Assembly (NCBI GenBank): GCA_026770705.1
Contig: JANJGN010000009.1
Location: 163,680,001-163,744,000, forward strand
From: Isurus oxyrinchus
Lineage: Eukaryota
Direction: 5' to 3'
DNA: 64,000 bases
Numbering within the stretch: position 1 is the first letter of the stretch; the number at the start of each line of letters is the position of its first letter. The position numbers and the translations under genes are program-made. Under the pieces are notes generated by a model. That model was given only the letters and a program-made list of their open reading frames with translations. It was not told the origin of the DNA and did no database searches. Shown here piece by piece: positions 15,127 through 59,300 of this stretch.

Positions 15127-15166
15127 ATGATGTGGATTTTGATTCTCCTCATTAGTTCTCTGCCCG
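15127..15166 (+). CDS. Gene A exon 1, signal peptide MMWILILLISSLP
   Basis: ATG at 15127, hydrophobic core, strong phase-1 donor G|GTGAGT at 15166/15167; joins in frame to VSGALW of the IgV exon. Identical in unit B. Confidence 0.88.
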
Positions 15167-18100
15167 GTGAGTGACAGACAGAGCTGGATGTTCCGATATT
15201 CTGAGTTGGTTTAACTCTCGTGCGCTGGTTATACAGGAGATGTTTAAATATTTGGAGACATGCAAAGGCACAAGAGAGGTCTTGGACACAGTGGGTAGCG
15301 TCACTGTATCTGAGCCAGAAGCTCTGTGTTTGAGTCCCACTTCTGTTCTTGTTGAGAATGGAAGGCGCGTTCTAACCAGGACCAACAGGTTGATTATCAA
15401 CCTGAAAATCTTCCAACAGACCGAAGGCTGGTGGGAAGAGGGTTTAAGATCCCAGTCCAACATGTTTGATGTGGAGTGGTGCCACTCATTCTGTTGTCTC
15501 CGGAGGTTAGTGACCTGTTCCGGGGAAAACAAGCTTTGGAAAGCAAAAGTAAACATGTGCTTTGTCTGCCGCATCCGTCTCTAGATGTGGGAAGTCTCCT
15601 AAGTCTAAAGGCACAAAATAGTCAGCAAAACCAAATGAGTAATAATTGTGAAGTATTTTATTACCCTGTGAATTAACTATCACACCATGGGAATAGTTAA
15701 CAAATAAACTGAACTGCATTATTAATTATGAATGATAAGTAAAGGAGAATTTAATTTTCAGAAAGCTATGCAAGCAACATTTTGAAAATGAAAACCTTTT
15801 TTAATTGGTAATTTTCAATATAATCTGATGTCCAGTATAGACTGAAGACTGCAGCGGTAATAATCCCACAAATAAAACATGTCCCAAGTTGGCAAATATT
15901 TCTGTTTTTGAAAGTACAGTTGATGAAATATTGTGTTATGAGGCTCTCTCAGTGACACTGTTCCTCACTGGTAGATGATTGGTCTACATCACTCTTCTCA
16001 TAAGTAGCCTTTTCTTGTTCATTCTTTAACTTTAAGAAACTAGATTTTGCTCATCACTCAGTATTGCCACCTCTCCATCATTTCGATGAATGTATTTTAT
16101 AACACACAATGTTAAACTCCCAGACCCATCTGCTCTTAACCACCTCCCCAAAATATTTTGCACCTCTAGCTGATCAATTTTATGCAGAATACTTGATGTA
16201 CTTATGGACAGGAAACTGAATCATGTTTCTGTCTGTTTGGCAATCTTCTTCTTTTCAATCCTTCCTCTTTCTGATCTGATCTCTTTCCCATTCCCTTTAC
16301 ATCTGTAACTTTCCCTGTATCTTTTTCCTTTTCTTCATTTCTCTCTAGCCATTTAATTATTTTCAATCTCTCTTTTGTTATTTTAGTGCAAACTCTTTCC
16401 CCACAGCATGAGTTTCTCTCCCAGCAAGGCCATTGGTCTCATGAATGTTCAAGTCAAGGCATCCAAATCCCTACCTCAGGAATCCATCCATACTGTAAGG
16501 CCACCTATCACACAACCTCGCAAACATTCAAGACCTTCAAATCCTACCTTTGGACATCCCTAACTCATTCAAGATCTGAACAACCCCTCCTGCAAGGACA
16601 CAAACCTCCTCTGCACCTCACCCACCTCAGATCAGAGCAGGGAACTGTCGGCTCCTGTGACCACCTCCACACTGCTCCCCAGCCGACTGCAAATCAGGCC
16701 TGTCAATCAGACTGGTTTCTGGCCGTGGAACCTCCTGATGATGTCAAACGCAGTCTAGGGTGAAACCTCAAAATATGAGGCAGAACCCCAATTTCCAGGT
16801 TCCCTCACTCTACCAGCCCCTGCCAATATGTCAAGAAAATGTCCCAATTATCTCACGAGTATATCATTGTCTGAGACGTGCTTTGGAACCACAGTGAGGC
16901 TCTGATAAGTGTCTATATGAATGATTACTCTCATCACAAACTTGATGGAATTTAACTCATTAAAATGCATCTGTTTGAATTAAGCAGTTATTTCCTGTTC
17001 AATTCCTGAAATGTTGTCTCCTCAGTTTCAGGTGCATTGTGGGCAAAAGAGAGAGTAACAGGAGTTGTGGGAAGAGCGATCACAATAGAATGTCACTATG
17101 ATGCACAGTGGTACAAGTCACATATAAAATATTGGTGTCGCGGCTGGACTCGCCAGTGTAATGTTGTAGCATCGACAAATTGGCGAAATGGAAGAATATC
17201 GGTCACAGATAACAAGTCACAAGGAATATTTATTGTTACTATGGAGAATCTTCACTCAGGAGATACAGGATGGTACAGCTGTGGTATTGAAGTAACTGGC
17301 CACAATCCAATGTTTAATGTAAAGCTACAAATATCTTACGGTACATTTCTTACTGTTTTTCTTTATTACTCTCGACTGAAATGTCTGCTCAATGTTTTAT
17401 CTGGGAGGAAACATGACAGCTCCGATATCCCGAGGCTCCACAGCAATGCAGAGTCTTAAACGTAAAGGGCAGTGGTCGGGAAATCCGACTCATGTTACCC
17501 AAACCCAATTCATGGCCTGTCCAACATGTCAGAATTGAACGTTACAAGTGAACTAAACGGAAATTGAGAAGTTGTTTTGATGGTAAAAGAAGCCTCTTTA
17601 TTAATTGTTGAGACATTGGGCTGGATATTCAGCCTCAAAGCGGGTAGGGGCAATTCGGAAAATTCCCCACTCGGCCTTGGAAGAAAGTGCCCACAAAGGT
17701 GGGATTCCCATTGCTGGGAGCTGTGCCCGGGCTGCAGTCTGGCCAGCCACACCAGGAAGAAATGCAGAGGCAGCCACAGGGGCTGCCGGCTGCGGAGACG
17801 GGCTGTTGAAAAGGCCCCTCCTTAATGCCCTTGGACTTTGTAACAGCTAAACTCAAAACACAAAGGCCCTTCACCCCTCACCCCTCACAGCCCACAAAGG
17901 GGGTGGATGTGAGGGGAAAATTTGTCATGAGGGGGCTTGGAGGTGGGTGGAAGTGTACAGCTTGAAGTCAGGAGCATGAGGGGGTATAAGGCGTGGGTAT
18001 AGCGATAGAGGGGGAACGAAGGGCCAAGCGGGTTGGATGGGGGTGTGACTTGACATAGCGGGCATGAGATGCACCTTTTGAACTTAGCTGTTAAAAGATC

Positions 18101-21100
18101 CCCTCATGCAGACCATTGTTTACAGCTCCTCTGAGGGGCTTTGGATTACGACTCATTCAAAACCTGGTCCGAGTCCATGAAAATTGCAGAGGAGTCGGAC
18201 GTCACTTTGGTCTGAAGGCTGCACAAAGCACAGGGTAGAGGCCCTGGACTGAGACACCAGCCTTTATCTTGTACAGAAAGTGTTCACATGTGAGTGACAT
18301 GAACATTGCTCATCAAAACAAGGAGCGATAGGCAGGGAGACATTCTTTGGAGGTTATTGACAATAATGAACAGTATGTACAAGTGATTAACACCCGTGCC
18401 CAGGACGTGAAACTACATCTCCTCAACCACGCGGTGTCTGGCGGCACCGTCGAGACCTTCTGTGCTCGGTGGGTGACCACGGGTGTTGGGGTCCTTTATC
18501 CAGCCTCTTAATCACATTTTGGTTTGATGTTGTAAGTGTCCTTTAAATCATGTCTTTGGTTTTGCAGTGACCCTAACTTAGGGGCTGCGTTTTATATTAT
18601 CCCTCATTTTGTTAATTTAGTTTATTGGGTTGGCTTTAAAAGAGCTACATCTTCTCAACTTTCCTAATCCTCCCGCTACATCTTGGTGCTCCGCAGACAT
18701 CCACAGTGGAGGTAAAGACAGTCTGCTGACTGCTATGCTCTGTCTGTGATAACTTTGGCGGGCGTCCTCTGGAGGCCTGAGGCCTGGAGGGCCCCGGCTT
18801 CCTTTCGAGGTCCTACTGTGTGGCATTAGCACCCTCCTTGTCCTGTGGACTGGGAGCTGTCAAGGTCACAGTAAGAGGGGAGTTACCAGGATGAATGGCC
18901 CCGGAGGGTACACATGTTGATCCTTCTCGCTATGGGTACCCAATGACCATTGGCTGAATCCTTGAGGAGCAGGTGTAGCTGGAGTGAGATCGAGCTGCCT
19001 GCACCCCTCTCGCATACACACTGTCAGGGGCCAACTATACATCAGCAATGGAGTTCAGCCCCGCAGCAGTGTAGGAACGATGCCCTGGACCAACGTCTCC
19101 ATTGCAGCTGCCATCCTACCAGTGTTGACCTCAGTGCATTGACATGCCGGCGCTATCACCTCAGAGGGCAGGCGGACGGACTCCTCCATTGTGCCTTGCA
19201 ATCTGAGGGGTGCAGCAGATATCCCTTCCTGATGTTCCCACGTTGGCCTTTCCAGTTCCTGCAACGGTGACATGACCAAATCCAGAAACGCGTCACCTGA
19301 CTCGACCTCAGCAAGTTTATGGCCTCCAGCTGCCCACTGAGTGCCGGACACCTGGGAAGCCCCTACCGCTGCCAGCTGTGGATCAGGCAGTGCGATTTGC
19401 TCACCAGCTGTGACCCTGAGTCTACTCTAAAGCTAGATCTCACCGAGGGGTGTGCCTCTGCGCTGGTGGAGGGTGTGGGTGAGGGCAGTGACGGTACATC
19501 AAGGAGGGTCCCTCCAGGTTCCTCTTCAGAGATTTCTTTGGGGATTACTTGGTGTCCCTGGGTCTCCATCGGCTGTTACCCAGATGTGCGTGTGGAAGCA
19601 AGTGGAAATATTTTGTGCATGGCAGTGGCCTGTGAAACAGGACACATCACTCACAGCATGGTTGTCTGATGGATGTTGCACTGCTGGACCCTCACTTGGC
19701 TGAGCACCGCCGACCTCACCGTCAGCACAGGATTGGTCCAGGCCGTTGCCGGCCAGCTGGATGGCTCTGTTTACAAAGTACTAGTACTGTTCAGGAACAT
19801 GATGTTCATATTTTCATACATGTCGCTGAATTTGTCAGTCACATTTACGCCTCTATTATCAACCAAAGAGCGGGATTGTCCCCGATTTGCACTAAGTGCG
19901 TTAGTGGGCGGGGGAATCGATGTTTTACCCACCGGCCACAATGGGGGGTTTTCAGGCTGCATCGTCCCAAACCCAACGCATTAGTTATGCATTCCCGGGA
20001 AACATACCATTTCCATGGTGAGTGGGATCTCATTCACCCCAAACACCATCATTTCACTGCTTCATCAGGCCCAGCACCATATGTAAAGTCCAGCCTCGTG
20101 CACACATCTCAGTGTTTCCAACCCAGGACCACTGCAGGGCAGATATCCCCAAGAGGCAAAAAGACTGTAGCTCCCAGGTTTAGTGAGCTGTCACTGCAAC
20201 ACATTGTGTACACTGTGGGGGCCCTGCTGTGATGTCCTCTACTCCCACTCTGGCTGCAGTATGGACAGCGCTGTGACCAACCAGGCCTGGGAGGCGGGGG
20301 CAGCAGTGGTATACCCACTGAATTTTATTAAGTTAACCCTCACTGTCAGATAATGTAGACAGTATGAAAAGTGTGGATGAGAAACCCTTAGAAACTGTCC
20401 TTGCTGGATGGAAACAAATACTGGAGAGATTGGAAATTTCTAAATGAAATGAGTGGATGCCTGATTGTTTTAGAGAATGAAATGCAGGTACAACAAATTT
20501 TTTAGGGATCTGAGGAGAGGGCTATCTTGCAATATGATGAAGTATAGAATATTGAGATTTTTAATTCAATTTACTTCACACTTTTTGGTCACCATATTAA
20601 CTGAAAATTTTATTTAAATGAGAGAAGGTCATCACCTAATCGTTTACTAATTGTGTTTAATTGTATGCAGTGGTGGCATTAATTGGTGATTCACTTGTGC
20701 ACCTATAAACAGATGCAGACTGAAACTGCGGGTGGTGGATTTAATTAGAATCACACAGTAAACAGCACTTTAAAACAGTTCCACAAGTCTTAACCTATCT
20801 AACCTCAGAGCTAATCTTTCTCTTTTCCGTTCAGCAACTAACACTATAGATTTAAAAAGCTATAGAAGTCCAATAATTTTACCACACAGTGCTTTCACAT
20901 TGGGGTGTCCACTGACAGCAACTGGGTCTTCAGATCTGGGCCTTGTTCACACTGTCTCCTGGGAATTCTGACCAGCTACCCTGCTGTCTTCAGGGAGATC
21001 TGGCCAACCATCCTGCTGTGTTCTGGGAGATCTAAGCAGCTACCCCCTCACATAGGCTTCAGTATTCCCTTAAATGTGTTTCTTCTCTTTCATCTCTCTT

Positions 21101-24100
21101 TGTCGTACCCAGTCTGTTCAGAAATGCTTTTATCCCAGGATTGATTAAATCAATCTTCACTTTAATTCTTAGACTTGTAAAAACAAACGTACCCTATCTT
21201 TATGTCACTTCATGACACCTTTTTACAACCTGCATATATCCCCCTTTGAACTAAAACAACTTAATTCAAACTATTCCTGTTATTGCTTCATGTACAAATC
21301 TGTTGAAGTTCTTTTGTGTTCATTAACATATCAAAACCACTTCTTACTGTTGACTTTTGACCCTATCCACTGATGAGGCAGTCCACGTCATGGAACCATA
21401 ACCTTAAATCTGGAGATAGGCTCGTCAGGGATGTCGGGAAGCACTTCTTCACGCAAAGTATAGCGGAAATCAGGAACACTCTCCTCAAAAAAGCTCTTTC
21501 GCTCAATTGAAAATTTCAAAACTGATTGACAGATTTTATCTGGTAGCAATATTCGGGTTATGGGACCCAGGTAGGTAAATGGACAGAAGATACTGGTCAG
21601 TTGGGATTTAATTGAATTGTGGAACAGGCTGAAGGGGCTGCATGTCCGAATCCCTTTTCCATGTTCTGGAGCCCCAGTTAATTTTTCAGTGGTCTGGGCC
21701 TTGTGAGTAACAATGTGCTGTGAAACAAGCTCACAAACAGTTAGCATTTCAAAGAGACACTTTCCAATCACCAGGCAAACTGTGACCTGTGTTGTTTCAG
21801 AGTACAGTTTGTGACAGTGAAAGCAGTGAAGGCCTGCCAAACCTCACTAAAAATGTTGGTGAAAGTGTCACTTTTCTCTGGCTAATCCCTTGATCAAAGA
21901 GGGAATTTTAATTCCCCTCCCCCATCCTGCATCGTGTTGAAGCATGATGGGATTTGCTGGATCCAGAACCTTCTCCAGCACGGCTTGTGATTCAGGAGAC
22001 ACACGAAAGCTTCACCCCCACCCCCAGGCAAATGTTTCATACAATTTCTCCCTCCCCATGATTGGCCAATCCTGCCCCAAGCAGCAAAGTCACCCTGACT
22101 CCCTCCTCGCTGCTGTGCTCCGAGGCAACATTCCCACCAATTTCCAAATTTTTACCATAACGTTCCTACTTGGAAACCAGCCAAACATTCAATCAGTGTG
22201 CAAGAATTCTGGTAAGATTTTGCTGCTAAATTCAGCACAAACTCAACATTCCTGGTATTTCCAGCTTTCTCACCACCCCACACACAGTCCCCCCTCTCGT
22301 CTCCACGTACCAGGGTTGAAGTGTTCTATCGCAGCATGCAGAGAACCAGAGCCAATCGCATTTACATTCTTATCCAAAGCCACAAAACATGTAACCGATA
22401 TCTGACAACATTTTGCCCTCATTTTACCCTTTGCTTTTCTAAGATTCTCTCCAACTAATTCACATTCAACTCACAAACAATGAAACAGCATTGGAGGCTC
22501 ACTACCAGCTACGAAGAGATATTGTTCACCATGATATTCATGTTAACATACTCTCAGTATCATAGCTGCTGTTCTGATCTGGAGACCTGATTTGTTCTGA
22601 TATAATGGCTGAAAGGGTAACTCAGGCCTCTAAGAGGATGGAGAGATATGGGGATGGATTTTTAAAAAGTATGCTATCAGGATTAGAGATGGGTGGGTGT
22701 GAAATTTGACACCGCTGGTCTCCATGCCAATTTACTGTTACAATCTCAAGCCCGAAACATTTAGAAAGCGAGCGGCTTGCAGTCAAGTGGTGGGCAGCTA
22801 ACTTAGGAAATAACATTTACCAAAGGGGCCAATTAAAGACCCATTCCTGCACCCACTGGGATTTCATTCAGCAATGATAGCAGACCACATTGCCCCTTCA
22901 GGATCATGGCCCGGCAGTTGCCGGGTTTTGAAACATAAAATAAACTTACCTGGACTTTCCCCTTGCTGTCTCCATGCTCAGGTCAGCAACTCCCACCTCA
23001 CCTGGTGAGGCCCTCTAGCATCAGGAGCCCGCCCACTGTCCCTGATTGGGTGGTGAGCCCAGTTCCAGGCTTTTGATTGGCTGGAACATTGAAAATTGTA
23101 TTGGGCATGCCTAAAGAATGGTGAATGGTGTCAGGACCTGAAACTATCTCCCATGTCCAGTTCGCAAACCCAAATTTAACATCCACCCCATAGAGTGGTA
23201 GATGTGTTGGTGAGATTCCAACATGACAGAGCCTGGCTGAGATGAAGTGCAAAGTTTGAAGAGTATTTGATTATTAAATGTTCAGTACTTGAATGTTTCT
23301 TTGTTTCCAACAGAACCCGTGTCTGTTCCTGTGCTTAGATTTTCATCACCACCACATGTCTCATGTTCTGGTGGTTCAGTGTCCGACTCCTGTGAGTCTG
23401 TCCAGGGATCCCTTCCCATTCAGTACACATGGTATGAAAAGACCCTGTCTGAAGATTCAAAGATCTCTGACAGCAATAAACTGGATCTACATTGTCAATC
23501 CTTCAAACAGCAACATCATCAATATTACTGTAGAGCCTCGAATAATCAGGGAGTAAAATCCAGTGACACTGTCACTGTTAACTTAACACTCATGAATGTA
23601 ACAACGAAAAGCTGCAGTTATGTGATACAAATTGGAAACATTGGTAAGTGTTACTTTCTACAAACAATGTGGTGAATGAATGTTTTAAATTCATGTCTAT
23701 CCAAACTGGTCACTGTTTCAGTTCCTTCAGTCAATCTGAGAAATTGCAACTGGCCAAATTCACTCTCTCTGGTTCCTCAAACATTCTGAACAAGGTCACT
23801 AAGTTGCATTTTTCATGAAAAATGGACAGGATCAGAAAATATCCCCAAAACATGCAAAAATATTGCCGAATCTCCAATAAACCCATCGAATCAAAATAGC
23901 ATTTGATTGACAGAGCTTTCATAAAGCAATTTGTCTATTTCCAGCAGATGGAATTGTGAAATGCAACCTCCAACTGTTGTGTCCTAGTTTGGGAAGGATA
24001 TCACTGATAGAATAGAGAAGAATTGAATTAAAATGAACCCTTGGATGAGAGGCTTTAGTCATGAGGAAAGTATCATCACAACTGAGGTGAATGACCAGCT

Positions 24101-27100
24101 GGAGGGCGTGGAAATTGTTAGAAATTTGGATAAGGTAACTCTAACTATTTCCACTAGTCAGTGAGTCAACAACAAGAGAGCATTAACTTTAAAATTATCA
24201 CTAAAAGGACAAAGGGAGAAATTTGGAGAATTTTATTGATGCAAACTGTTTTTAGGACATGGAATGCCCAACTGAAATAAGTTTACAAACAAATTTAATA
24301 ATAGATTTTAAAAGGGAAACAAATGTATGAGGGTGTGGGAAAAGGACAATGAAATGGAATTAAATGAGGAGATCATTCAGAGAACCAGCATTCGAGCGAT
24401 GGGCTGAATTCCCTCCCCTGTGTTGTAAAAATTCCATCACTCCAGACAAAATCTCAACTTATCCTGTATAAAAAATTAACTATTCCTTCCCCATAAAACA
24501 ATGACCCTGGTTCTGAAACAAGGAGGACTTTAGCCTATTTGAATGTAGCGGTTCAATTTTCTGCAGAGTGGGTGCAGCATGTTCACCGAGAAACACCAAC
24601 ATGGGCACAAAACAAAGAGAATCACATTTTCCCCTGAGCAGCAGGAGACAGGAATTTACATATGCAAATATATTGACTCTGGTCATGTGGTCTCTTGCCT
24701 CAGTTGTCAGGGAAGAAGGGTGGAATTTTACACCCCCATTGCGCCAGGGACTGGGCTGTAAAATGCAGCCAGCCATTCTAAACTCCATGCACTCCAGCAG
24801 GACCATAAAATCCCACTGTCACAAGCCTCAGACCAAAGGCTGTCAGCAGCAGGTAGAAATTACACCTGTAAACTGTGTTTGTACTGGAGTTGTCAGCAGG
24901 GACTCAGTCGCACTCTGACCTTTGATGACAGTATTTTGTAGGTTCAAGTTTCCCTTAAGAGTTAAAATTCAGGCTGATACCACTGTCCAGCACTGAGGTA
25001 GTGCTATACTGGTGGTGGTGCTGCTGTGTAGATGAGGTGTTAAACTGAGGATCCACATCCCCCTTAGGTAGATGTAAACAATTCCAGGGTATTATTCACA
25101 GAATAGGGAAGTTCTCCTGGTGTCCTTGAAGCCTTTATTCCTCAACCAATACACACAAATTGGGAGCAGGAGCAGGCTATTTGGTCTTTTGAGCCTGTTA
25201 ATGTCACTAAAAACAGATCATCTAGTGAATGTTTTACTGATGTTTGTGGGGCTTTGTTGTGTACGAATTAACTTTCACGTTTTCCGATATTAAAACTTTG
25301 GCTTTACTTCAGAAAAGTACTTAATAGGCTCTGAAGCACTTTGGGATATCTCAAGGTTGTGAAAGGTGATGAATCAACACAACTGATTTCTTACCTTTTG
25401 AAACAAACGACTTATTAAAATACATCTGAACCATATGCAAACTGGAGGGGGGGGGAGGGGGAGGGAGGAGCCAGTCCCAGCAGCAAGGTGGGTCATTATT
25501 TTTAAATGGACAGAAAATCACTGGCAGGTTTGAGACATTCAGCATCAGTGGGTGAAGATTCCCATCTTTACTGCAAGCTCAGAAAACTGCCCCCAAAGGA
25601 CAGAAAGTGACCATTGCCAGTATTTGGATGTGACTGTTTAATGTGTTCACATGAAATTCTTGTCAAGAAAGTGTATCTCTGATTGTAGTCCACCAACCTG
25701 AGCCCTTACCTGGCCCACTTCTAACTCTGTCCCACCAACTCTCAGATATAGGAAAGAAAGTGGAATTACCAGTAAAGATAGACCACCAGGTATCAGCAAA
25801 CTCTCCACTTGTGACCAGAGAGGGGTAAATTACACAGAAATCAATTCTACCAGCCAGTCTTTTCCTCAAGTAATGAGGTTCCATTTGACAATGATGCTCT
25901 CTCAGTTGAATACAAGTGAAAATGAGGTGAATCTCAATGTTATTCTCTTGTTTCAACAGGACCTGAGTATTGTTACGAAGCTTGTACAACAGTATCACCA
26001 ACTATCACACAACCCAGGAACGCAGTTGGGAATCCCAGAATTAGGACACATCCGCCATTTTTAAAGGGCTCTTGAATCAACCCAAGTTGGTGAAATCCAG
26101 GCCGTCACTTTGGTCTGAAGGCTGCACAAAGCACAGGGTAGAGGTCCTGGACTGAGACACCTGCCTTTATCTTGTACAGAAAGTTTTCACATGTGAGTGA
26201 CATGAACATTGCTCATCAAAACAAGGAGCGATAGGCAGGGAGACATTCTTTGGAGTTTATTGACAATAATGAACAGTATGTACAAGTGATTAACACCCGT
26301 GCCCAGGACGTGAAACTACATCTCCTCAACCAGGCGGTGTCTGGCGGCACCGTCGAGACCTTCTGTGCTCGGTGGGTGACCATGGGGGGTTGGGATGCTT
26401 TATCCACCCTCTTAATCACACTTTAGTTTGATGTTGTAAGTTTCCTTTAAATCCTGTCTTTGGTTTTGCAGTGACCCTAACTTAGGGGCTGCGTTTTATT
26501 TTGTCCCTCATTTTGTTAATTTAGTTTATTTGGTTGACTTTAAAAGAGCTACATCTTCTCAACTTTCCTAATCCTCCCGCTACATCTTGGTGCTGCACAG
26601 ACATCCACAGTGGAGGTAAAGACAGTCTGCTGACTGCTATGCTCTGTCTGTGATAACTTTGGCGGGCGTCCTCTGGAGGCCTGAGGCCTGGAGGGCCCCG
26701 GCTTCCTTTCGAGGTCCTACTGTGTGGCATTAGCACCCTCCTTGTCCTGTGGACTTGGAGCTGTCAAGGTCACAGTAAGAGTGGAGTTACCAGGATGAAT
26801 GGCCCCAGAGGGTACACATGTTGATCCTTCTCGCTATGGGTACCCAAGGGCCCGTGTCTGAATTCTTGAGGAGCAGGGGTAGCTGGAGTGAGATCGAGCT
26901 GCCCGCACCCCTCTCACATACACACTGTCAGGGGCCAACTATGCATCAGCAATGGAGTTCAACCCCACAGCAGTGTAGGAACGGTGCCCTGGACCAACGT
27001 CTCCATGGCACCTGCCATCCTACCAGTGTTGACCTTGGTGCAATGACATGCCAGCGCTATCACCTCAGACTGCAAGTGGACGGATTCCTCCATATTAACT

Positions 27101-30100
27101 GAAAATTTTATTTAAAAAGAGAGAAGGTCACCATCTAATCCTTTATTAACTGTGTTTAATTGTATGCAGTGGTAGCATTAAACAGATGTCTTCAGGTCTG
27201 GGCCTTGTACACACTGTCTCCTGGGAGTTCTGACCAGCTACCCTGCTGTCTTCAGGGAGATCTGGCCAACCATTCTGCTGTGTTCTGGGAGATCTAAGCA
27301 GCTACCCCCTCACATAGGCTTCAGTATTCCCTTAAATGTGTTTCTTCTCTTTCATCTCTCTTTGTTGAAACCAGTCTGTACAGAAATGCTTTTTTCCCAG
27401 GATTGATTAAATCAATCTTTACCTCTTAAACTTGTAAAAACAAACTTACCCTATCTTTATGTCAATTCCTTACACCTTTTTACAACCTGCATAAAGCTCC
27501 CTTTGAACTAAAACAACTCAATTCAAACTATTCCTGTTATTGCTTCATGAACTAATCTGTTGAAGTTCTTTTTTGTTCATTAACATATCAAAACAACTTC
27601 TTACTGTTGACTTTTGACCCTACCCACTGATGAAGCAGTCCACGTCATGGAACCATAACCTTAAATCTGGAGATAGGCTCGTTAGGGATGTCAGGAATCA
27701 CTTCTTCACGCAAAGTATAGTGGAAATCAGGAACACTCTCCTCAAAAAAGCTCTTGAACTTAAATGAAAATTTCAAAACTGATTGACAGATTTTATCTGG
27801 TAGCAATATTCGGGTTATGGGACCCAGGTAGGTAAATGGACAGAAGATACTGGTCAGTTGGGATTTAATTGAATTGTGGAACAGGCTGAAGGGGCTGCAT
27901 GTCCGAATCCCTTTTCCATGTTCTGGAGCCCCAGTTAATTTTTCAGTGGTCTGGGCCTTGTGAGTAACAATGTGCTGTGAAACAAGCTCACAAACAGTTA
28001 GCATTTCAAAGAGACACTTTCCAATCACCAGGCAAACTGTGACCTGTGTTGTGTCAGAGGACAGTTTGTGACAGTGAAAGCAGTGAAGGCCTGCCAAACC
28101 TCATTAAAAATATTGGTGAAAGTGTCACTTTTCTCTGGTTAATCCCTTGACCAAAGAGGGAATTTTAATTCCCCTCCCCCATCCTGAATCCAGTTGAAGC
28201 ATGATGGGATTTGCTGGATCCAGAACCTTCTCCAGCACGGCTTGTGATCCAGGAGACACACGAAAGCTTCACCCCCACCCCCAGGCAAATGTTTTATACA
28301 ATTTCTCCCTCCCCATGATTGGCCAATCCTGCCCCAAGCAGCAAAGTCACCCTGACTCCCTCCTCGCTGCTGTGCTCCGAGGCAACATTCCCACCAATTT
28401 CTCCCATGTCCAGTTCCCAAACCCAAATTTAACATCCACCCCATAGAGTGGTAGATGTGTTGGTGAGATTCCAACATGGCAGAGCCTGGCTGAGATGAAG
28501 TGCAAAGTTTGAAGAGTATTTGATTATTAAATGTTCAGTATCTGAATGTTTCTTTCTTTCCAACAGAACCCGTGTCTGTTCCTGTGCTTAGATTTTCATC
28601 ACCAGCAAATGTCTCATGTTCTGGGGGTTCAGTGTCCGTCTCCTGTGAGTCTGTCCAGGGATCCCTTCCCATTCAGTACACATGGTATGAAAAGACCCTG
28701 TCTGAAGATTCAAAGATCTCTGACACCAATAAACTGGATCTACATTGTCAATCCTTCAAACAGCAACATCATCAATATTACTGCACAGCCTCAAATAATC
28801 AGGGAGTAAAATCCAGTGACACTGTCACTGTTAACTCAACACTCATGAATGTAACAACGAAAAGCTGCAGTTATGTGATACAAATTGGAAACATTGGTAA
28901 GTGTTACTTTCTACAAACAACGTGGCGAATGAATGTTTTAAATTCATGTCTATCCAAACTGGTCACTGGTTCAGTTCCTTCAGTTTATCTGAGAAATTGC
29001 AACTGGCCAAATTCACTCTCTCTGGTTCCTCAAACATTCTGAACAAGGTCACTAAGTTGCATTTTTCATGAAAAATGGACAGGATCAGAAAATATCCCCA
29101 AAACATGCAAAAATATTGCAGAATCTCCAACAAACCCATCGAATCAAAATAGCATTTGATTGACAGAGCTTTCATAAAGCAATTTGTCTATTTCCAGCAG
29201 ATAGAATTGTGAAATGCAACCTCCAACTGTTGTGTCCTAGTTTGGGAAGGATATCACTGATAGAATAGAGAAGAATTGAATTAAAATGAACCCTTGGATG
29301 AGAGGCTTTAGTCATGAGGAAAGTATCATCACAACTGAGGTGAATGACCAGCTGGAGGACGTGGAAATTGTTAGAAATTTGGATAAGGTAACTCTAACTA
29401 TTTCCACTAGTCAGTGAGTCAACAACAAGAGAGCATTAACTTTAAAATTATCACTAAAAGGACAAAGGGAGAAATTTGGAGAATTTTATTGATGCAAACT
29501 GTTTTTAGGACATGGAATGCCCAACTGAAATAAGTTTACAAACAAATTTAATAATAGATTTTAAAAGGGAAACAAATGTATGAGGGTGTGGGAAAAGGAC
29601 AATGAAATGGAATTAAATGAGGAGATCATTCAGAGAACCAGCATTGGAGCGATGGGCTGAATTCCCTCCCCATGTTGTAAAAATTCCATCATTCCAGACA
29701 AAATCTCAAATTATCCTGTATAAAAAATTAACTATTCCCTCCCCATAAAACAATGACCCTGGTTCTGAAACAAGGAGGACTTTAGCCTATTTGAATGTAG
29801 CGGTTCAATTTTCTGCAGAGTGGGTGCAGCATGTTCACCGAGAAACACCAACATGGGCACAAAACAAAGAGAATCACATTTTCCCCTGAGCAGCAGGAGA
29901 CAGGAATTTACATATGCAAATATATTGACTCTGGTCATGTGGTCTCTTGCCTCAGTTGTCAGGGAAGAAGGGTGGAATTTTACACCCCCATTGCGCCAGG
30001 GACTGGGCTGTAAAATGCAGCCAGCCATTCTAAACTCCATGCACTCCAGCAGGACCATAAAATCCCACTGTCACAAGCCTCAGACCAAAGGCTGTCAGCA

Positions 30101-33100
30101 GCAGGTAGAAATTACACCTGTAAACTGTGTTTGTACTGGAGTTGTCAGCAGGGACTCAGTCGCACTCTGACCTTTGATGACAGTCTTTTTTAGGTTCAAG
30201 TTCCCCTTAAGAGTTAAAATTCAAGCTGATACCACTGTCCAGCACTGAGGTAGTGCTATACTGGTGGTGGTGCTGCTGTGTAGATGAGGTGTTAAACTGA
30301 GGATCCACATCCCCCTTAGGTAGATGTAAACAATTCCAGGGTATTATTCACAGAATAGGGAAGTTCTCCTGGTGTCCTTGACGCCTTTATTCCTCAACCA
30401 ATACACACAAATTGGGAGCAGGAGCAGGCCACTTGGTCTTTTGAGCCTGTTAATGTCACTACAAAACAGATCATCTAGTGAATGTTTTACTGATGTTTGT
30501 GGGGCTTTGCTGTGTACGAATTAACTTCCACGTTTCCTGATATTAAAACTTTGGCTTTATTTCAAAAAAGTACTTCATAGGCTCTGAAGCACTTTGGGAT
30601 ATCCCAAGGTTGTGAATGGTGATGAATCAACACACATTGTTTCTTACATTTTGAAACAAACGATTCATTAAAATACATCTGAACCAATTATCTGAGTGCA
30701 AACTGGAGGGGGGTAAGGGGAGGGAGGAGCCAGTCCCAGCAGCAAGGTGGGTCATTATAATTAAATGTTCAGAAAATCACTGGCAGGTTTGAGACATTCA
30801 TGGTCAGTGGGTGAAGATTCTCATCTTTACTGCAAGCTCAGAAAACTGTCCCCAAAGGGCAGAAAGTGACCATTGCCAGTATTAAGATGTGACTGTTTAA
30901 TGTGTTCACATGAAATTCATGTCAAGAAAGTGTATCTCTGGATTGTAGTCCACCAACGTGAGCCCTTAACTGGCCCACTTCTAACTCTGTCCCACCAACT
31001 CTCAGATATAGGAAAGAAAGTGGAATTACCAGTAAAGATAGGTCACCACCAGGTATCAGCAAACTCTCCACTTGTGACCAGAGAGGGGTAAATTACACAG
31101 AAATCAATTCTACCAGCCAGGCATTTCCTCAATTAATGAGGTTCCATTTGACAATGATGCTCTCTCAGTTGACTACAAGTGAAAATGAGGTGAATCTGAC
31201 TGTTATTCCCTTGTTTCAACAGGACCGGAGTATTTTTGTGAAGATTCTGCAACAGTATCACCAACTATACATTTGACAAGTACAGATATAATTTCCACTA
31301 CCAGTCGATCCACACCTTCAGATCCCGAAAATCCTGAAAGGTACAATGTTCTCATGGATTGGTACTGCTTCCATATGTGAGAGATACGATTGGCCAAAGG
31401 AGTGAAAGTTGTTCATTAATTTGGAAAGTAGCTCATCAGAATGGAAATGGTGGCTGGGTTTATATCATGCTGTTGTGTTAGCTTCTTAATGAGGGTGCAT
31501 TTTTCTGTTGGAAAATACAAGCAAGGAGTGAGCTTTTCCATTGTGTTGCCGCTCAGATGGTGTTTTTAGCCTTATTCACCTTAATTACTTCACCGCTAAG
31601 GTAACCTCACAGTGTGTGAGGAGTTGTACTTGTCAAACTTACCTTGCTGCTGTCTACACTGACAGAGTACTTGTATTTGGGCTGATGAAAAGGAAGAATT
31701 AGCGTGAGCTGCTGAATGTTTCCAGAATCTTCTGTTTTCCATTCATATTTCTAGCACATGCAGTGCTCTTACTTTTATCCAGATTATTGTCAATGATTTA
31801 AAAAGTATTGAAAGTCTATGGTCTGAATTTTCCGCTCGGCGGGGGTGGGGCTGGGGTAGAGCGGGAGCGAGCACGGGCAGCTGTGGACCCGTTCACCATC
31901 CACCATCGGGTTTTTGACGCCATTTTGCGCGGGCGGCCAATTTAGGCCATCCCAGCGTATTTCCCGACTCCCGAGGATAGCGGGAGTGGGCGAGCAGCGG
32001 GGGGTGTGCACAGACAACCGAGTCCAATGGTGACCCAGCGGCCTGTTTAAATGAAGGCCTGGCAGCCTGTTCCAGCTGCTCACAATGGCCAGTGCAAAGA
32101 ATTTTCACTTACAATTTAGCTTTGTATTACAGTTAGACATTATGGACATGCTAAAGAAATTTGCTTCGTTTGATTTTTATCTAATGATCATGAAGTTGAT
32201 AAGTAGAACTTTAGTTGATTCTTTCAGCTAAAGTCCCTTGTCTACTTTATGTTGCTGCAAAAAATTACAGTGTAAAGCGGAGAGTCATGTTTCAAAAATG
32301 AAACAGTCTCATTTCATTTAAATGGTTTGATATTTCTTCTCTTTTGCTCAGTTGCATTATCTGGGATGTGATACGCTGGGTGCTCTTTACTCTCCTGGTG
32401 ATTTGTGCTGTTTCGGGCACATGGTGTACGAGAAAATCTAAGGTGAGAGTTATGGACTGTATAAGAATCATTATGGGCAGTTTGCAATGTTATGATGTGG
32501 CAGATGATGTGTGTCAGGCAGACCAAATCCACGAGTGAAACTTGGTCGAGCTGTCACAACGGTTTTGCAATTTATATTTATTATGAGATGCATGCACTGA
32601 ATTCAGACACCATAAGTCTACCAAACTTTTAGAGATTTAAAAAATATATCGTTAAATATATTTATTAGCAAAAGATAGATTTCAATTACATACATAAGTC
32701 TACTAATTTCTTCTATAATAACTCGTAAAATTCCTAATTAGCCTCACTCCCAGTTACACCTCCTTTAAGGCAACTGTACAAAGAATAGATATTAGGTTTC
32801 AAGCAGATCCAGCAAATTGACACAATGATCTAGACAGTGGAATTCCAAATGGCTTTCACCAGCTTCAGTTTCGTTAGACAGCAGGCTTATGCACAAATGC
32901 TGGAGGCTTCATTAAGGCTACTTCAAACACATCTGTTAGGTCTCATATGGACTTCTCCTGACACATAGCCTCATTCTCCTTTATATATGTTTCCCTCTAT
33001 TTAACATGTAAACCCTATTGTTTCAGATACCTTTGAAACTGTGTCTTCCTCACAATGTAAAAACTTTCATGTCGATACTATATATTGTCAGTAACCTTTG

Positions 33101-36100: not shown

Positions 36101-36262
36101 GATGTTGCCACAGCTCCAGTTCATCACATGCTTTGCCTCGATTTGCTGGCATAGCCAGAATTCTGTTCACATGTAAAATAATGCATCGTTCTCAGTCTCA
36201 ATTAATCTGGTGATTTTCAGTTCCAGACACTCAACGGATCAGATCCTCAGAGCTTGACCTAA
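15127..36262 (+). CDS. Gene A: CD300/CMRF35/pIgR-like IgSF receptor. Predicted exons 15127-15166, 17026-17340, 23314-23643, 28567-28896, 31223-31340, 32352-32442, 36221-36262 (421 aa with both IgC2 exons, 311 aa with one)
   Basis: GT/AG-bounded exons with compatible phases (1,1,1,1,2,0) join without a stop: MMWILILLISSLP/VSGALWAKERV..IgV/EPVSVP..IgC2/stalk/TM/short tail. The last exon is the least certain. Confidence 0.85.
15275..15570 (+). mobile_element. tRNA-derived SINE remnant in intron 1 (copy at about 50432-50727)
   Basis: A-box-like cagtgggtagcg and B-box-like gtttgagtccc at tRNA spacing. Confidence 0.45.
17026..17340 (+). CDS. Gene A exon 2, IgV domain of CD300/pIgR type
   Basis: Acceptor ctcctcag, donor G|GTACAT. 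Motifs ITIECHY, KYWC-x6-C (the extra C-C' disulfide typical of CD300/pIgR/TREM V domains), GRISVTDN and DTGWYSC. Confidence 0.93.
18200..19775 (-). mobile_element. Diverged Harbinger Myb-like gene fragment in intron 2 (copies at 26103-27093 and 53357-54932)
   Basis: Peptides ELERPTWEHQEGISAAPLRLQGTMEES and EVNTGRMAAAMETL are homologous to 1269-1493. Confidence 0.7.
18428..18644 (+). mobile_element. 217-bp 5'-truncated non-LTR retroposon end (Tx1/L1-like) with 15-bp TSD; copies at 26331-26548 and 53585-53801
   Basis: TSD ctacatctcctcaac (18413-18427) and ctacatcttctcaac (18645-18659); absent from the related element at about 845-860. Reads HAVSGGTVETFCARW, then a T-rich UTR. Clade assignment is from recall. 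Confidence 0.6.
19868..20320 (+). mobile_element. Harbinger end plus Myb-like N-terminus in the opposite orientation (copy at 55025-55477)
   Basis: gatttgcactaagtgcg matches the reverse complement of the element end near 2790-2800; RGKKTVAPRFSELSL. Confidence 0.6.
23314..23643 (+). CDS. Gene A exon 3a, IgC2 domain (FcR-like/PECAM type)
   Basis: Acceptor tttccaacag, donor G|GTAAGT, 330 nt, phase 1/1. Motifs PVSVPVL, C-ESVQGSLPIQYTWY and YYCRASN. Confidence 0.85.
23960..24430 (+). mobile_element. Old CR1 3' fragment (copies at about 29210-29680 and 59120-59590)
   Basis: Degenerate similarity to the CR1 3' ends at 3507-3962 and 13600-13940. Confidence 0.55.
24895..25385 (+). mobile_element. 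Deu-domain (SacSINE/AmnSINE-like) SINE; copies at about 30150-30640 and 60055-60545
   Basis: B-box-like ggttcaag, then aggctgatacc..cagcactgaggtagtgct..gatgaggtgttaaactgagg, and a tail aagcactttgggat. Recognised from memory of the family consensus. Confidence 0.6.
25960..26075 (+). pseudogene. Gene A exon 4a, truncated stalk exon reading into a stop (GPEYCYEACTTVSPT-ITQPRNAVGNPRIRTHPPFLKGS*)
   Basis: Intact acceptor tttcaacag. Homology with the full stalk exon ends at 26005; the frame continues in unrelated filler to TGA 26073-26075. The normal donor is lost. Confidence 0.8.
26103..31268 (+). repeat. Intragenic direct duplication of 18200-26005 (part of intron 2, IgC2 exon, intron 3, start of stalk exon), gene A only
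   Basis: cgtcactttggtctgaagg at 18200 and 26103; homology ends at ccaactat (26005/31268). The second copy has deletions of about 1.4 kb, 25 bp, 0.2 kb and 1.0 kb. Confidence 0.93.
28567..28896 (+). CDS. Gene A exon 3b, duplicated IgC2 domain
   Basis: Near-identical copy of 23314-23643 with intact splice sites and an open 330-nt frame. Confidence 0.88.
31223..31340 (+). CDS. Gene A exon 4b, Ser/Thr/Pro-rich stalk (GPEYFCEDSATVSPTIHLTSTDIISTTSRSTPSDPENPE)
   Basis: Acceptor tttcaacag, donor AAG|GTACAA, 118 nt, phase 1 to phase 2, matching the TM exon. Confidence 0.85.
32352..32442 (+). CDS. Gene A exon 5, transmembrane segment (SCIIWDVIRWVLFTLLVICAVSGTWCTRKSK)
   Basis: Long polypyrimidine acceptor, donor AAG|GTGAGA, hydrophobic helix followed by the basic stop-transfer RKSK. 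Confidence 0.88.
32488..33412. mobile_element. Solo-LTR-like element, 925 bp (copy at 62724-63648)
   Basis: TGTTATGA...TCATGACA termini (7/8 inverted match); flanks GCAA and GTAA. Confidence 0.6.
33522..34440 (+). mobile_element. Another decayed Harbinger end with Myb-like exon 1 (partial copy at 63758-64000)
   Basis: Starts tgggcagaat...gatttgcac; contains ANALLKRTATQR*KRMN followed by a donor-like site. Confidence 0.6.
34470..35700 (-). mobile_element. Decayed CR1 ORF2 endonuclease fragment
   Basis: ADELTAQIEIYGYDLIAMTETWLQ...GKGGGVALLIN. Confidence 0.85.
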
Positions 36263-50283: not shown

Positions 50284-50323
50284 ATGATGTGGATTTTGAT
50301 TCTCCTCATTAGTTCTCTGCCCG
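50284..50323 (+). CDS. Gene B exon 1, signal peptide
   Basis: Identical to 15127-15166, donor GTGAGT. Confidence 0.88.
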
Positions 50324-53300
50324 GTGAGTGACAGCCAGAGCTGGATGTTCCGATATTCTGAGTTGGTTTAACTCTCGTGCGCTGGTTATACAGGAGATGT
50401 TTAAATATTTGGAGACATGCAAAGGCACAAGAGAGGTCTTGGGCACAGTGGGTAGTGTCTCTGTATCTGAGCCAAAAGCTCTGTGTTTGAGTCCCACTTC
50501 TGTTCTTGTTGAGAATGGAAGGCGCGTTCTAACCAGGACCAACAGATTGATTATCAACCTGAAAATCTTCCAACAGACCGAAGGCTGGTGGTAAGAGGGT
50601 TTAAGATCCCAGTCCAACATGTTTGATGTGGAGTGGTGCCGCTCATTCTGTTGTCTCCGGAGGTTAGTGACCTGTTCCAGGGAAAACAAGCTTTGGAAAG
50701 CAAAAGTAAACATGTGCTTTGTCTGCCGCATCCGTCTCTAGATGTGGGAAGTCTCCTAAGTCTAAAGGCACAAAATAGTCAGCAAAACCAAATGAGTAAT
50801 AATTGTGAAGTATTTTATTACCCTGTGAATTAACTATCACACCATGGGAATAGTTAACAAATAAACTGAACTGCATTATTAATTATGAATGATAAGTAAA
50901 GGAGAATTAAATTTTCAGAATGCTATGCAAGCAACATTTTGAAAATGAAAACCTTTTTTAATTGGTAATTTTCAATATAATCTGATGTCCAGTATAGACT
51001 GAAGACTGCAGCGGTAATAATCCCACAAATAAAACATGTCCCAAGTTGGCGAATATTTCTGTTTTTTAAAGTACAGTTGATGAAATATTGTGTTATGAGG
51101 CTCTCTCAGTGACACTGTTCCTCACTGGTAGATGGTTGGTCTACATCACTCTTCTCATAAGTAGCCTTTTCTTGTTCATTCTTTAACTTTAAGAAACTAG
51201 ATTTTGCTCATCACTCAGTATTGCCACCTCTCCATCATTTCGATGAATCTATTTTATAACACACAATGTTAAACTCCCAGCCCCATCTGCTCTTAACCAC
51301 CTCCCCAAAATAGTTTGTGCCTCTAGCTGATCAATTTAATGCAGAATACTCGATGTACTTATGGACAGGAAACTGAATCATGTTTCTGTCTGTTTGGCAA
51401 TCTTCTTCTTTTCAATCCTTCCTCTTTCTGATCTGATCTCTTTCCCATTCCCTTTTCATCTGTAACTTTTCCTGTATCTTTTTCCTTTTCTTCACTTCTC
51501 TCTAGCCATTTAATTATTTTCAATCTCTCTTTTGTTATTTTAGTGCAAACTCTTTCCCCACAGCATGAGTTTCTCTCCCAGCAAGGCCATTGGTCTCATG
51601 AAAGTTCAAGTCAAGGCATCCAAATCCCTACCTCAGGAATCCATCCATACTGTAAGGCCACCTATCACACAACCTCGCAAACCTTCAAGACCTTCAAATC
51701 CTACCTTTGGACATCCCTAACTCATTCAAGATCTGAACAACCCCTCCTGCAAGGACACAAACCTACCCCGCACCCCACCCATCTCAGATCAGAGCAGGGA
51801 ACTGTCGGATCCTGTGACCCCCTCCACACTGCTCCCCAGCCGACTGCAAATCAGGCCTGTCAATCAGGCTGGTTTCTGGCTGTGGAACCTCCTGATGATG
51901 TCAAACGCAGTCTAGGGTGAAACCCCAAAATATGAGGCAGAACCCCAATTTCCAGGTTCCCTCACTCTACCAGCCCCTGCCAATATGTCAAGAAAATGTC
52001 CCAATTATCTCACGAGTATATCATTGTCTGAGACGTGCTTTGGAACCACAGTGAGGCTCTGATAAGTGTCTATATGAATGATTACTCTCATCACAAACTT
52101 GATGGAATTTAACTCATTAAAATGCATCTGTTTGAATTAAGCAGTTATTTCCTGTTCAATTCCTGAAATGTTGTCTCCTCAGTTTCAGGTGCATTGTGGG
52201 CAAAAGAGAGAGTAACAGGAGTTGTGGGAAGAGCGATCACAATAGAATGTCACTATGATGCATGGAGGTACAAGTCACATATAAAATATTGGTGTCGCGG
52301 CTGGACTCGCCAGTGTAATGTTGTAGCATCAACAAATAGGCCAAATGGAAGAATATCGGTCACAGATAACAAGTCACAAGGAATATTTATTGTTACTATG
52401 AAGGATCTTCACTCAGGAGATACAGGATGGTACAGCTGTGGTATTGAAGCAACTGGCCACGATCCAATGTTTAATGTAAAGCTACAAATATCTTACGGTA
52501 CATTTCTTACTGTTTTTCTTTATTACTCTCGACTGAAATGTCTGCTCAATGTTTTATCTGGGAGGAAACATGACAGCTCCGATATCCCGAGGCTCCACAG
52601 CAATGCAGAGTCTTAAAGGTAAAGGGCAGAGGTCGGGAAATCCGACTCATGTTACCCAAACCCAATTCATGGCCTGTCAAACATGTCAGAATTGAACGTT
52701 ACAAGTGAACTAAACGGAAATTGAGAAGTTGTTTTGATGGTAAAAGAAGCCTCTTTATTAATTGTTGAGACATTGGGCTGGATATTCAGCCTCAAAGCGG
52801 GTAGGGGCAATTCAGAAAATTCCCCGCTCGGCCTTGGAAGAAAGTGCCCACAAAGGTGGGATTCCCATTGCTGGGAGCTGTGCCCGGGCTGCAGTCTGGC
52901 CAGCCACACCAGGAAGAAATGCAGAGGCAGCCACAGGGGCTGCCGGCTGCGGAGACGGGCTGTTTAAAAGGCCCCTCCTTAATGCCCTTGGACTTTGTAA
53001 CAGCTAAACTCAAAACACAAAGGCCCTTCACCCCTCACCCCTCACAGCCCCCAAAGGGGGTGGATGTGAGGGGAAAATTTGTCATGAGGGGGCTTGGAGG
53101 TGGGTGGAAGTGTACAGCTTGAAGTCAGGAGCATGAGGGGCTATAAGGCGTGGGTATAGGGATAGAGGGGGAACGAAGGGCCAAGCGGGTTGGATGGGGG
53201 TGTGACTTGACATAGCGGGCATGAGATGCACCTTTTGAACTTAGTTGTTAAAAGATCCCCTCATGCAGACCAGTGTTTACAGCTCCTCTGAGGGGCTTTG

Positions 53301-56300: not shown

Positions 56301-59300
56301 TTAAATCAATCTTTACTTTAATTCTTAGACTTGTAAAAACAAACTTACCCTATCTTTATGTCACTTCATGACACCTTTTTACAACCTGCATATATCCCCC
56401 TTTGAACTAAAACAACTCAATTCAAACTATTCCTGTTATTGCTTCATGTACAAATCTGTTGAAGTTCTTTTTTGTTTATTAACATATCAAAACCACATCT
56501 TATTGTTGACTTTTGACCCTATCCACTGATGAGGCAGTCCACGTCATGGAACCATAACCTTAAATCTGGAGATAGGCTCGTCAGGGATGTCAGGAAGCAC
56601 TTCTTCACGCAAAGTATAGTGGAAATCAGGAACACTCTCCTCAAAAAAGCTCTTTAGTTCAATTGAAAATTTCAAAACTGAATGACAGATTTTATCTGGT
56701 AGCAATATTCGGGTTATGGGACCCAGGTAGGTAAATGGACAGAAGATACTGGTCAGTTGGGATTTAATTGAATTGTGGAACAGGCTGAAGGGGCTGCATG
56801 TCCGAATCCCTTTTCCATGTTCTGGAGCCCCAGTTAATTTTTCAGTGGTCTGGGCCTTGTGAGTAACAATGTGCTGTGAAACAAGCTCACAAACAGTTAG
56901 CATTTCAAAGAGACACTTTCCAATCACCAGGCAAACTGTGACCTGTGTTGTTTCAGAGGACAGTTTGTGACAGTGAAAGCAGTGAAAGCCTGCCAAACCT
57001 CATTAAAAATGTTGGTGAAAGTGTCACTTTTCTCTGGCTAATCCCTTGACCAAAGAGGGAATTTTAATTCCCCTCCCCCATCCTGCATCGTGTTGAAGCA
57101 TGATGGGATTTGCTGGATCCAGAACCTTCTCCAGCACGGCTTGTGATCCAGGAGACACACGAAAGCTTCACCCCCACCCCCAGGCAAATGTTTTATACAA
57201 TTTCTCCCTCCCCATGATTGGCCAATCCTGCCCCAAGCAGCAAAGTCACCCTGACTCCCTCCTCGCTGCTGTGCTCCGAGGCAACATTCCCACCAATTTC
57301 CAAACTTTTACCATAACGTTCCTACTTGGAAACCAGCCAAACATTCAATCAGTGTGCAAGAATTCTGGTGAGATTTTGCTGTTAAATTCGGCACAAACTC
57401 AACATTCCTGGTATTTCCAGCTTTCTCACCACCCCACACACAGTCCCCCCTCTCGTCTCCACGTACCAGGGTTGAAGTGTTCTATCGCAGCATGCAGAGA
57501 ACCAGAGCCAATCACATTTACATTCTTATCCAAAGCTACAAAACATGTAACCGATATCTGACAACATTTTGCCCTCATTTTACCCTTTGCTTTTCTAAGA
57601 TTCTCTCCAACTAATTCACATTTAACTCACAAACAATGAAACAGCATTGGAGGCTCACTACCAGCTACGAAGAGATATTGTTCACCATGATATTCATGTT
57701 AACATACTCTCAGTATCAGAGCTGCTGTTCTGATCTGGAGACCTGATTTGTTCTGATATAATGGCTGAAAGGGTAACTCAGGCCTCTAAGAGGATGGAGA
57801 GATATGGGGATGGATTTTTAAAAAGTATGGGGTCAGGATTAGAGATGGGTGGGTATGAAATTTGACACCGCTGGTCTCCATGCCAACTTACCATTACAAT
57901 CTCAAGCCCGAAACATTTAGAAAGCGGGTGGCTTGCAGTCAAGTGGTGGGCAGCTAACTTAGGAAATAACATTTACCAAAGGGGCCAATTAAAGACCCAT
58001 TCCTGCACCCACTGGGATTTCATTCAGCAATGCAAGCAGACCACATTGCCCCTTCAGGATCATGGCCCGGCAGCTGCCGGGTTTTGAAACATAAAATAAA
58101 CTTACCTGGACTTTCCCCTTGCTGTCTCCATGCTCAGGTCAGCAACTCCCACCTCACCTGGTGAGGCCCTCTAGCATCAGGAGCCCGCCCTCTGTCCCTG
58201 ATTGGATGGTGAGCCCAGTTCCAGTCTTTTGATTGGCTAGAACATTGAAAATTGCAGTGGGCATGCCTAAAGAATGGTGAATGGTGTCAGGACCTGAAAC
58301 TATCTCCCATGTCCAGTTCCCAAACCCAAATTTAACATCCACCCCATAGAGTGGTAGATGTGTTGGTGAGATTCCAACATGGCAGAGCCTGGCTGAGATG
58401 AAGTGCAAAGTTTGAAGAGTATTTGATTATTAAATGTTCAGTATCTGAATGTTTCTTTCTTTCCAACAGAACCCGTGTCTGTTCCTGTGCTTAGATTTTC
58501 ATCACCGCTAAATGTCTCATGTTCTGGGAGTTCAGTGTCCGTCTCCTGTGAGTCTGTCCAGGGATCCCTTCCCATTCCGTACACATGGTATGAAAAGACC
58601 CTGTCTGAAGATTCAAAGATCTCTGACACCAATAAACTGGATCTACATTGTCAATCCTTCAAACAGCAACATCATCAATATTACTGCACAGCCTCAAATA
58701 ATCAGGGAGTAAAATCCAGTGATACTGTCACTGTTAACTTAACACTCATGAATGTAACAACGAAAAGCTGCAGTTATGTGATACAAATTGGAAACATTGG
58801 TAAGTGTTACTTTCTACAAACAATGTGGCGAATGAATGTTTTAAATTCATGTCTATCCAAACTGGTCACTGGTTCAGTTCCTTCAGTTTATCTGAGAAAT
58901 TGCAACTGGCCAAATTCACTCTCTCTGGTTCCTCAAACATTCTGAACAAGGTCACTAAGTTGCATTTTTCATGAAAAATGGACAGGATCAGAAAATATCC
59001 CCAAAACATGCAAAAATATTGCCGAATCTCCAATAAACCCATCGAATCAAAATAGCATTTGATTGACAGAGCTTTCATAAAGCAATTTGTCTATTTCCAG
59101 CAGATGGAATTGTGAAATGCAACCTCCAACTGTTGTGTCCTAGTTTGGGAAGGATATCACTGATAGAATAGAGAAGAATTGAATTAAAATGAACCCTTGG
59201 ACGAGAGGTTTTAGTCATGAGGAAAGTATCATCACAACTGAGGTGAATGACCAGCTGGAGGACGTGGAAATTGTTCGAAATTTGGATAAGGTAACTCTAA

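Follow-up and report, generated by a model that had tools for sequence, protein, structure and literature searches.

Gene A and its neighbour, gene B, are receptor genes in a stretch of 64,000 nucleotides from Isurus oxyrinchus (assembly GCA_026770705.1). The whole of that stretch, here called the window, is C9:163680001-163744000, where C9 is contig JANJGN010000009.1, and coordinates given without the C9 prefix are positions in the window. Overall, we believe that gene A is a real double-C2 member of a known family of paired receptors, the MDIRs, that it probably arose by fusion, and that it carries a candidate stop-containing exon which had been overlooked before. Its exons, together with the fragment of a stalk exon that lies among them, are as follows.

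15127..15166 (+): exon 1, leader MMWILILLISSLP, ending in phase 1; the start of the leader matches skate MDIR3 and MDIR5
17026..17340 (+): exon 2, V-set immunoglobulin (Ig) domain of array V type I, 315 nt, phase 1/1
23314..23643 (+): exon 3a, first C2 domain (C2a), 330 nt, phase 1/1, open
25960..26004 (+): stalk-exon stub, with intact acceptor and the first 45 nt, donor gone
28567..28896 (+): exon 3b, second C2 domain (C2b), 330 nt, phase 1/1, open, of array-typical sequence
31223..31340 (+): full stalk exon, 118 nt, phase 1/2
32352..32442 (+): transmembrane (TM) exon, likely of activating type, with Asp and Arg, phase 2/0
36221..36262 (+): putative last coding exon, boundaries predicted, a short tail without tyrosine; AATAAA at 36370

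Exon structure and family of gene A

Exon phases are consistent across the whole gene model. Exons 3a and 3b are both flanked by AG and GT and lie in one frame, and they differ at 9 of 330 nt (97.3% alike), the substitutions in 3a relative to 3b being A13P, N14H, V24D, T53S, T73R and S90L. A preliminary description of this DNA had called both exons open, 330 nt long and phase 1/1, which the exon coordinates, splice sites and frame bear out. The V domain of exon 2 has a Pfam V-set match (E 9.8e-10), and another in-frame AG lies 6 nt downstream of its acceptor. With its Asp and Arg, the TM stretch, 55% identical to that of MDIR5, is predicted to be of the activating type; receptors of that type couple, by a charged TM residue, to adaptors with an immunoreceptor tyrosine-based activation motif, FcR-gamma or DAP12. 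The tail-exon region is present behind all activating-type TM exons of the surrounding array.

Membership in the MDIR family is indicated by comparison with the clearnose skate references MDIR5 (P0067) and MDIR3 (P0073). The gene A V domain is 54-59% identical to their five V domains (E 1e-33 or better) and its C2 is 56-67% identical to their four C2 domains, and the locus has what characterizes MDIRs: a CD300/pIgR-type V, a homologous C2, both activating and inhibitory members, and a variable number of V and C2 domains. In PMC3031540, MDIRs are described as multigene families with activating and inhibitory members, related to CD300, TREM, FCAR and pIgR.

The junction and its second copy

Self-comparison of the window aligns 18197-26005 with 26100-31268 at 91-97% identity, in four pieces parted by three indels. 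The repeated block is divided by a single join:

18197..26004 (+): segment 1, comprising intron, C2a, intron and stalk stub, with a type I intron at its 5' end
26004..26005: junction, non-homologous, with 1 nt common to both sides
26005..31268 (+): segment 2, comprising a type II/older-lineage intron, C2b, intron and the start of the stalk exon
26005..26099: V-C2 intron sequence, 95 bp, shared by 10 type II and 2 older genes but missing from the first intron of gene A

To the left of the join a stalk exon breaks off after its nucleotide 45, and to the right the sequence continues inside a V-C2 intron. Two things had been missed here: that the stalk exon is broken at 26004/26005, 45 nt past the acceptor at 25960, and that 26005-26099 is not spacer but intron sequence found in 12 other cluster genes.

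A 401-nt stretch across the junction has a single other full-length match, at C9:164131896, in a gene that we call A'. This gene lies 426 kb from gene A and has the same exon order, V-C2-stub-C2-stalk-TM. Two of the 23 plus-strand genes of the cluster, A and A', thus carry an identical junction (that of A' at C9:164132050), and they are 98.8% identical over 18.4 kb, 99.1-99.3% near the junction and 97.9% over leader and V. A 118-nt contig from DNA run X1, which may derive from the assembled animal itself, spans 25916-26033 across the junction with 0 differences; its end, as we read it, probably marks the point of merging with type II introns. The contigs listed for organism B (runs X5, X6 and X11) begin or end at 26004, with none crossing it. 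They were not used as evidence; contigs cannot show the absence of a junction, and contig depth was not taken as copy number. The preliminary description had treated the doubled C2 as real DNA, and the A' junction and the exact X1 contig make an assembly artefact unlikely.

Five other gene pairs, between C9:163516512-163654833 and 163939242-164113548, are 99.75-99.94% alike, and four of the five have offsets of 423-462 kb in the same order, mostly collinear with A and A'. Such a pattern would arise if a block had recently been duplicated, or if the assembly had placed two haplotypes in tandem. A' would be a paralogue in the first case and an allele of A in the second, and under both the junction is present in the DNA.

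Ancestry of the two halves

Copying within one gene and deletion between two genes leave the same join, and it is therefore the ancestry of the halves that discriminates between them. In trees of 28-29 copies we tested the four segments (halves 1 and 2 of both A and A') as one clade. By the approximately unbiased (AU) test, one clade is rejected for intron block 1 (p-AU 8e-4), intron block 2 (p-AU 1.5e-5), the distal intron and stub (p-AU 9e-6) and the whole 2.87-kb shared region (p-AU 0.003). Segment 1 has 20 rare alleles in common with an inverted fragment elsewhere in the cluster (C9:163461-163464 kb), which is the closest relative of its 3' end, and 5 with segment 2. The intron layout of segment 2, over about 1.8-2.1 kb, is that of type II genes and of a minus-strand gene at 163415 kb on C9. 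Copies made by intragenic exon duplication should be mutual closest relatives along their length, and these halves are not. Instead, their differing closest relatives in four of the five tests, together with the lineage-specific indels, favour fusion of two paralogues, and the intragenic duplication proposed in the preliminary description is weakened, one 0.9-kb tract still grouping the halves. A present-day type II gene as the source of segment 2 proved too simple, segment 2 branching separately, next to the type II and the older genes.

Condition of the first C2 domain

Exon 3a reads SVSDSC and PHVS where exon 3b reads SVSVSC and ANVS, and the Asp that had been singled out as sitting at a normally buried site is indeed exceptional. 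We compared position 24, two residues before the B-strand Cys, across 265 homologous C2 domains, drawn from 120 of the 144 proteins retrieved. The residue is V in 212, I in 29, L in 11, M in 9, A in 2, G in 1 and a gap in 1; V, I, L or M therefore accounts for 261 of the 265, and Asp for none. The FCRL5 domains aligned have V or L. Position 24, which we take from Ig topology to face the core, falls within strand 21-30 of an alignment-based model (predicted local distance difference test score, pLDDT, 77.6; one of five models above 70), from which only strand positions were taken and which is silent on the effects of point changes. A fold search with this C2a model returned no match at E 0.001 or better, and a single-sequence fold of C2a (pLDDT 37.5) was unusable. 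Pfam Ig_3 scores C2a at 25.3 bits and C2b at 30.0 bits.

The combination P13/H14/D24 is found in 2 of the 25 array C2 exons, those of A and A', and the changes are therefore older than the split between these genes. Loss of the NVS sequon in exon 3a, now HVS, was correctly noted before. Its reading as a sign of decay is rejected, the sequon being absent from 61 of the 265 homologous domains (His14 occurs in 4 of 265). On the sequence comparisons, the first C2 domain of gene A is likely defective, an extra copy that is probably decaying.

A candidate stop exon and the predicted products

The stub acceptor at 25960 is intact and resembles the acceptor of the working stalk exon. Reading through the stub gives 37 codons and then a TGA at 26073, and this frame is open and kept in both A and A'. 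We scored splice donors by a simple count of matches to the consensus. The GT at 26192 matches at 8 of 9 positions and the donor of the complete stalk exon at 6 of 9, while no GT ahead of the TGA exceeds 4 of 9. The predicted feature is:

25960..26192 (+): candidate stop-containing exon, 233 nt, donor CAT/GTGAGT, TGA at 26073

Its donor is old intron sequence, present in 28 of the 28 copies listed, and the join placed it within 233 nt of an acceptor; acceptor, stop and donor are found together in A and A'. If donor 26192 is used, the stop lies about 117 nt ahead of the splice junction. A stop more than 50-55 nt before a splice junction triggers decay (the 50-55 nt rule), and the candidate exon, if used, would therefore do so. 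Behind the stub stop, three ATTAAA hexamers lie at 1.1-2.0 kb, and there is no AATAAA between that stop and exon 3b.

The products foreseen for gene A had been V-C2-C2 or either V-C2 form. The phases do permit these, but the list was incomplete, for between the two C2 exons stands a stub with a live-looking acceptor. The donors of exons 3a and 3b are the same in sequence and their acceptors nearly so, and with such normal splice sites 3a is presumably included in most transcripts. A transcript in which 3a is followed by the stub exon would end at the stop at 26073 and would either be sent to decay or yield a secreted V-C2 protein, while one in which 3a is followed by 3b would encode V-C2(Asp24)-C2-stalk-TM, with a first C2 that likely folds poorly. 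An ordinary activating-type V-C2 receptor like that of gene B would require skipping of 3a.

The donor of the stalk exon is weak (the 6 of 9 matches given above), with read-through open for 13 codons and then a stop in 23 of the 23 complete stalk exons listed, and a same-phase alternative GT is present at 31376 (region 31341-31379). From these two features, secreted or longer-stalk forms are possible family-wide. About 330 bp of the stalk-TM intron, retained in A' and in gene B, are missing from gene A at 31707.

Gene B and the receptor array

Gene B has the following exons:

50284..62678 (+): gene B, with leader 50284-50323, V 52183-52497, C2 58470-58799, stalk 61127-61244 and TM 62588-62678

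Gene B had been described as having a single C2, and 58470-58799 is its sole C2 exon in the window. Its TM is of activating type and its tail lies outside the window.

The two genes belong to a large cluster, which we mapped over 1.06 Mb. When the genome was searched, 34 matches to the C2 (103 of 103 candidates scored) and at least 39 to the V (150 of 591 candidates scored) were obtained, 32 of the latter in 163.13-164.26 Mb, and the nearest named proteins, 85-88% identical in C2, are from Carcharodon and Cetorhinus. The plus-strand part (C9:163.48-164.28 Mb) comprises 23 genes spaced 29-43 kb apart, of which 13 have an Asp/Arg TM and a short tail and 10 have a neutral TM and a tail exon with motifs, ITYAAV and VIYSGV, that resemble the immunoreceptor tyrosine-based inhibitory motif (ITIM). 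V type I genes are of activating type in 10 cases and inhibitory type in 3, V type II genes in 3 and 7, respectively. Both V types thus pair with both 3' ends, which indicates that 5' and 3' halves have often been exchanged in the array; the switch between activating-type and ITIM-type ends lies about 3.6 kb past the start of C2, within the stalk-TM intron. The exon orders V-only, V-C2, V-C2-C2 and V-C2-V-C2 all occur in the cluster.

Other members and elements were seen along the way. At C9:163254723-163289100 lies an older V-C2-V-C2 member with a neutral TM, whose ITIM-like exon has stops in the aligned frame. Two minus-strand members (C9:163359561-163363540 and 163228885-163231404) have a V exon followed by an activating-type TM, with no C2 match between V and TM in either. 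The inverted fragment named above belongs to a V-less C2-stalk-TM-ITIM fragment on the minus strand (C9:163456500-163467000), apparently cut by an inversion. Upstream of gene A, a 719-codon open frame at 11211-13367 (minus) is a retroelement with a reverse-transcriptase match (Pfam RVT_1, E 1.1e-6, slightly below the curated cut-off), and related pieces occur in type II introns. At 4371-5131 and 41665-43095, a 27-bp tandem repeat within a repeated element carries long Glu/Ala/Val-rich open frames, for which there was no Pfam match.

Origin and meaning of gene A

On balance, we favour the view that deletion-fusion of neighbouring gene copies gave rise to gene A, a shark MDIR whose two C2 exons are both intact, whose anchor is likely activating and whose first C2 is likely defective. 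The deletion would have brought the front of one copy and the back of its neighbour together in a non-homologous join with 1 nt of overlap, removing the stalk end, TM and tail of the upstream gene together with the leader and V exon of the downstream gene. Gene conversion would later have patched both halves, including the 0.9-kb tract that they have in common. Regardless of the exact history, the exon set, the junction 45 nt inside the stalk exon, the A' copy and the mixed ancestry of the halves are features of the DNA itself. Gene A is likely a weakened by-product of array turnover and not a new receptor class.

At the same time, a number of points weigh against this view. One clade is not rejected for 24049-24944 (p-AU 0.56), where the four segments have 4 rare alleles in common, 1 of them private to the four, a pattern to be expected after an intragenic duplication. 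The distal and mid windows were picked after the rare-allele result had been seen, and the tree tests presume no recombination inside a block; the array recombines, and the p values are therefore guides. A and A' both have an open exon 3a and both retain D24, and the changes in 3a are too few for a selection test. The burial of residue 24 is deduced from the alignment and from general Ig topology. Behind 17% of intron places, at 50-300 nt, lies a donor that equals the one at 26192; donors of this quality are so common that the presence of one says little by itself, and the stop exon is possibly unused. Finally, the X1 contig extends 89 nt to the left and 29 nt to the right of the join, below the 31-nt bridging rule.

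The nearest competitor, which we regard as rather unlikely, is that a stretch of about 7.9 kb (intron, C2, intron and stalk start) was duplicated in tandem within one gene, and that crossovers or conversions then replaced segment 1 in its 5' part and segment 2 in its 3' part with sequence of other paralogues. In an array that recombines so heavily, with visible shuffling of 5' and 3' halves, such a replacement of both ends is conceivable. The type of junction would be the same, the 24049-24944 tract groups segments 1 and 2 with the inverted fragment (support 94), and the two segments differ by only 1-5 per 300 columns over 23749-25243. Such a history nonetheless requires at least two extra exchanges and meets the rejection of one clade in four of the five tests, and the 3' intron of segment 2 is a branch of its own, which carries 8 private alleles and departs from segment 1 at 49 of about 760 sites.

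It is doubtful that gene A, whatever its origin, is a working variant, kept as a longer V-C2-C2 activating receptor or, by read-through of the stub, as a secreted V-C2 decoy. The phases permit the first form; A and A' have both kept exon 3a, exon 3b and the stub read-through open; the ATTAAA hexamers stand behind the stub stop; and V-C2-C2 models with such a TM are annotated in 3 of 120 related proteins. Those three models, however, resemble V-C2-V-C2 minus the second V, and their old C2 types are 61-70% alike, so that they are not comparable with gene A. The lack of any counterpart to Asp24 among the homologous domains and of AATAAA from the stub stop to exon 3b also count against a working variant. 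Quite improbable, in our estimation, is the stronger proposal that the fusion was a new architecture at birth with its own switch, in which splicing picks a long activating, a normal, or a secreted or decayed form, and which was then kept and copied in the array. An artefact in which near-identical paralogues were mis-joined to give a double C2 would suit a highly repetitive array with five such similar gene pairs and an A' that is possibly an allele of A, but it is highly improbable, given a non-homologous junction found twice in copies about 1% apart, private alleles common to A and A' in both segments (11 and 8), and an X1 contig that crosses the join exactly.

With deletion-fusion as the preferred origin, gene A provides a base-level example of how domain number changes in a shark paired receptor, by a non-homologous join in a fast-recombining array. 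It is also of use in annotating MDIR clusters, some of whose gene models may represent fusions or splice-skips, and exact junctions are supplied here. The picture of the family would change only if the V-C2-C2 or the secreted form were made and functional.

Comparison with known systems

Variation in domain number between neighbours, which the preliminary description had put forward as the notable feature of the locus, was overrated. The exon orders of the cluster and the 120 related protein models show it to be routine among MDIRs; those models comprise more than 30 domain strings, with V-C2-C2-TM in 3 and V-C2-C2 in 1. The MDIRs of clearnose skate, described by Cannon in 2006, are reportedly modular, with varying numbers of V and C2 domains. 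Such variation is already known for the family, and gene A is real but ordinary. We compared five C2-C2 models from other sharks and rays; their C2 pairs are 54-70% alike, and no recent C2 doubling is seen among these five. In literature on MDIRs and shark CD300-like receptors, nothing on this cluster appeared among the matches listed.

Gene A is most like the skate MDIRs, in the start of its leader, its V, its C2 and its Arg-bearing TM, and its cluster likewise has activating and inhibitory members and variable strings of V and C2. Where skate MDIR5 is V-C2-V-C2 and skate MDIR3 is V-V-C2-V-C2, however, gene A has a single V and then a pair of C2 exons, 94% identical, that flank a stalk stub. 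The likeness to mammalian CD300 and pIgR lies in the V-set type, judged by the source names of relatives. Among solved structures, FCRL5 matches the C2 best (summed over repeated domains, E 3.3e-47; best single domain 5e-08). In organization, the closest parallel is with the KIR-type clusters of natural killer cell receptors, in which hybrid genes and domain shuffling are described (PMC1193534). There, as here, recombination in a tandem array of paired receptors makes hybrids and swaps ectodomain and signalling halves. The families are unrelated, however, and whereas that account is of unequal crossing over and shuffling, the join in gene A is non-homologous and adds a domain.

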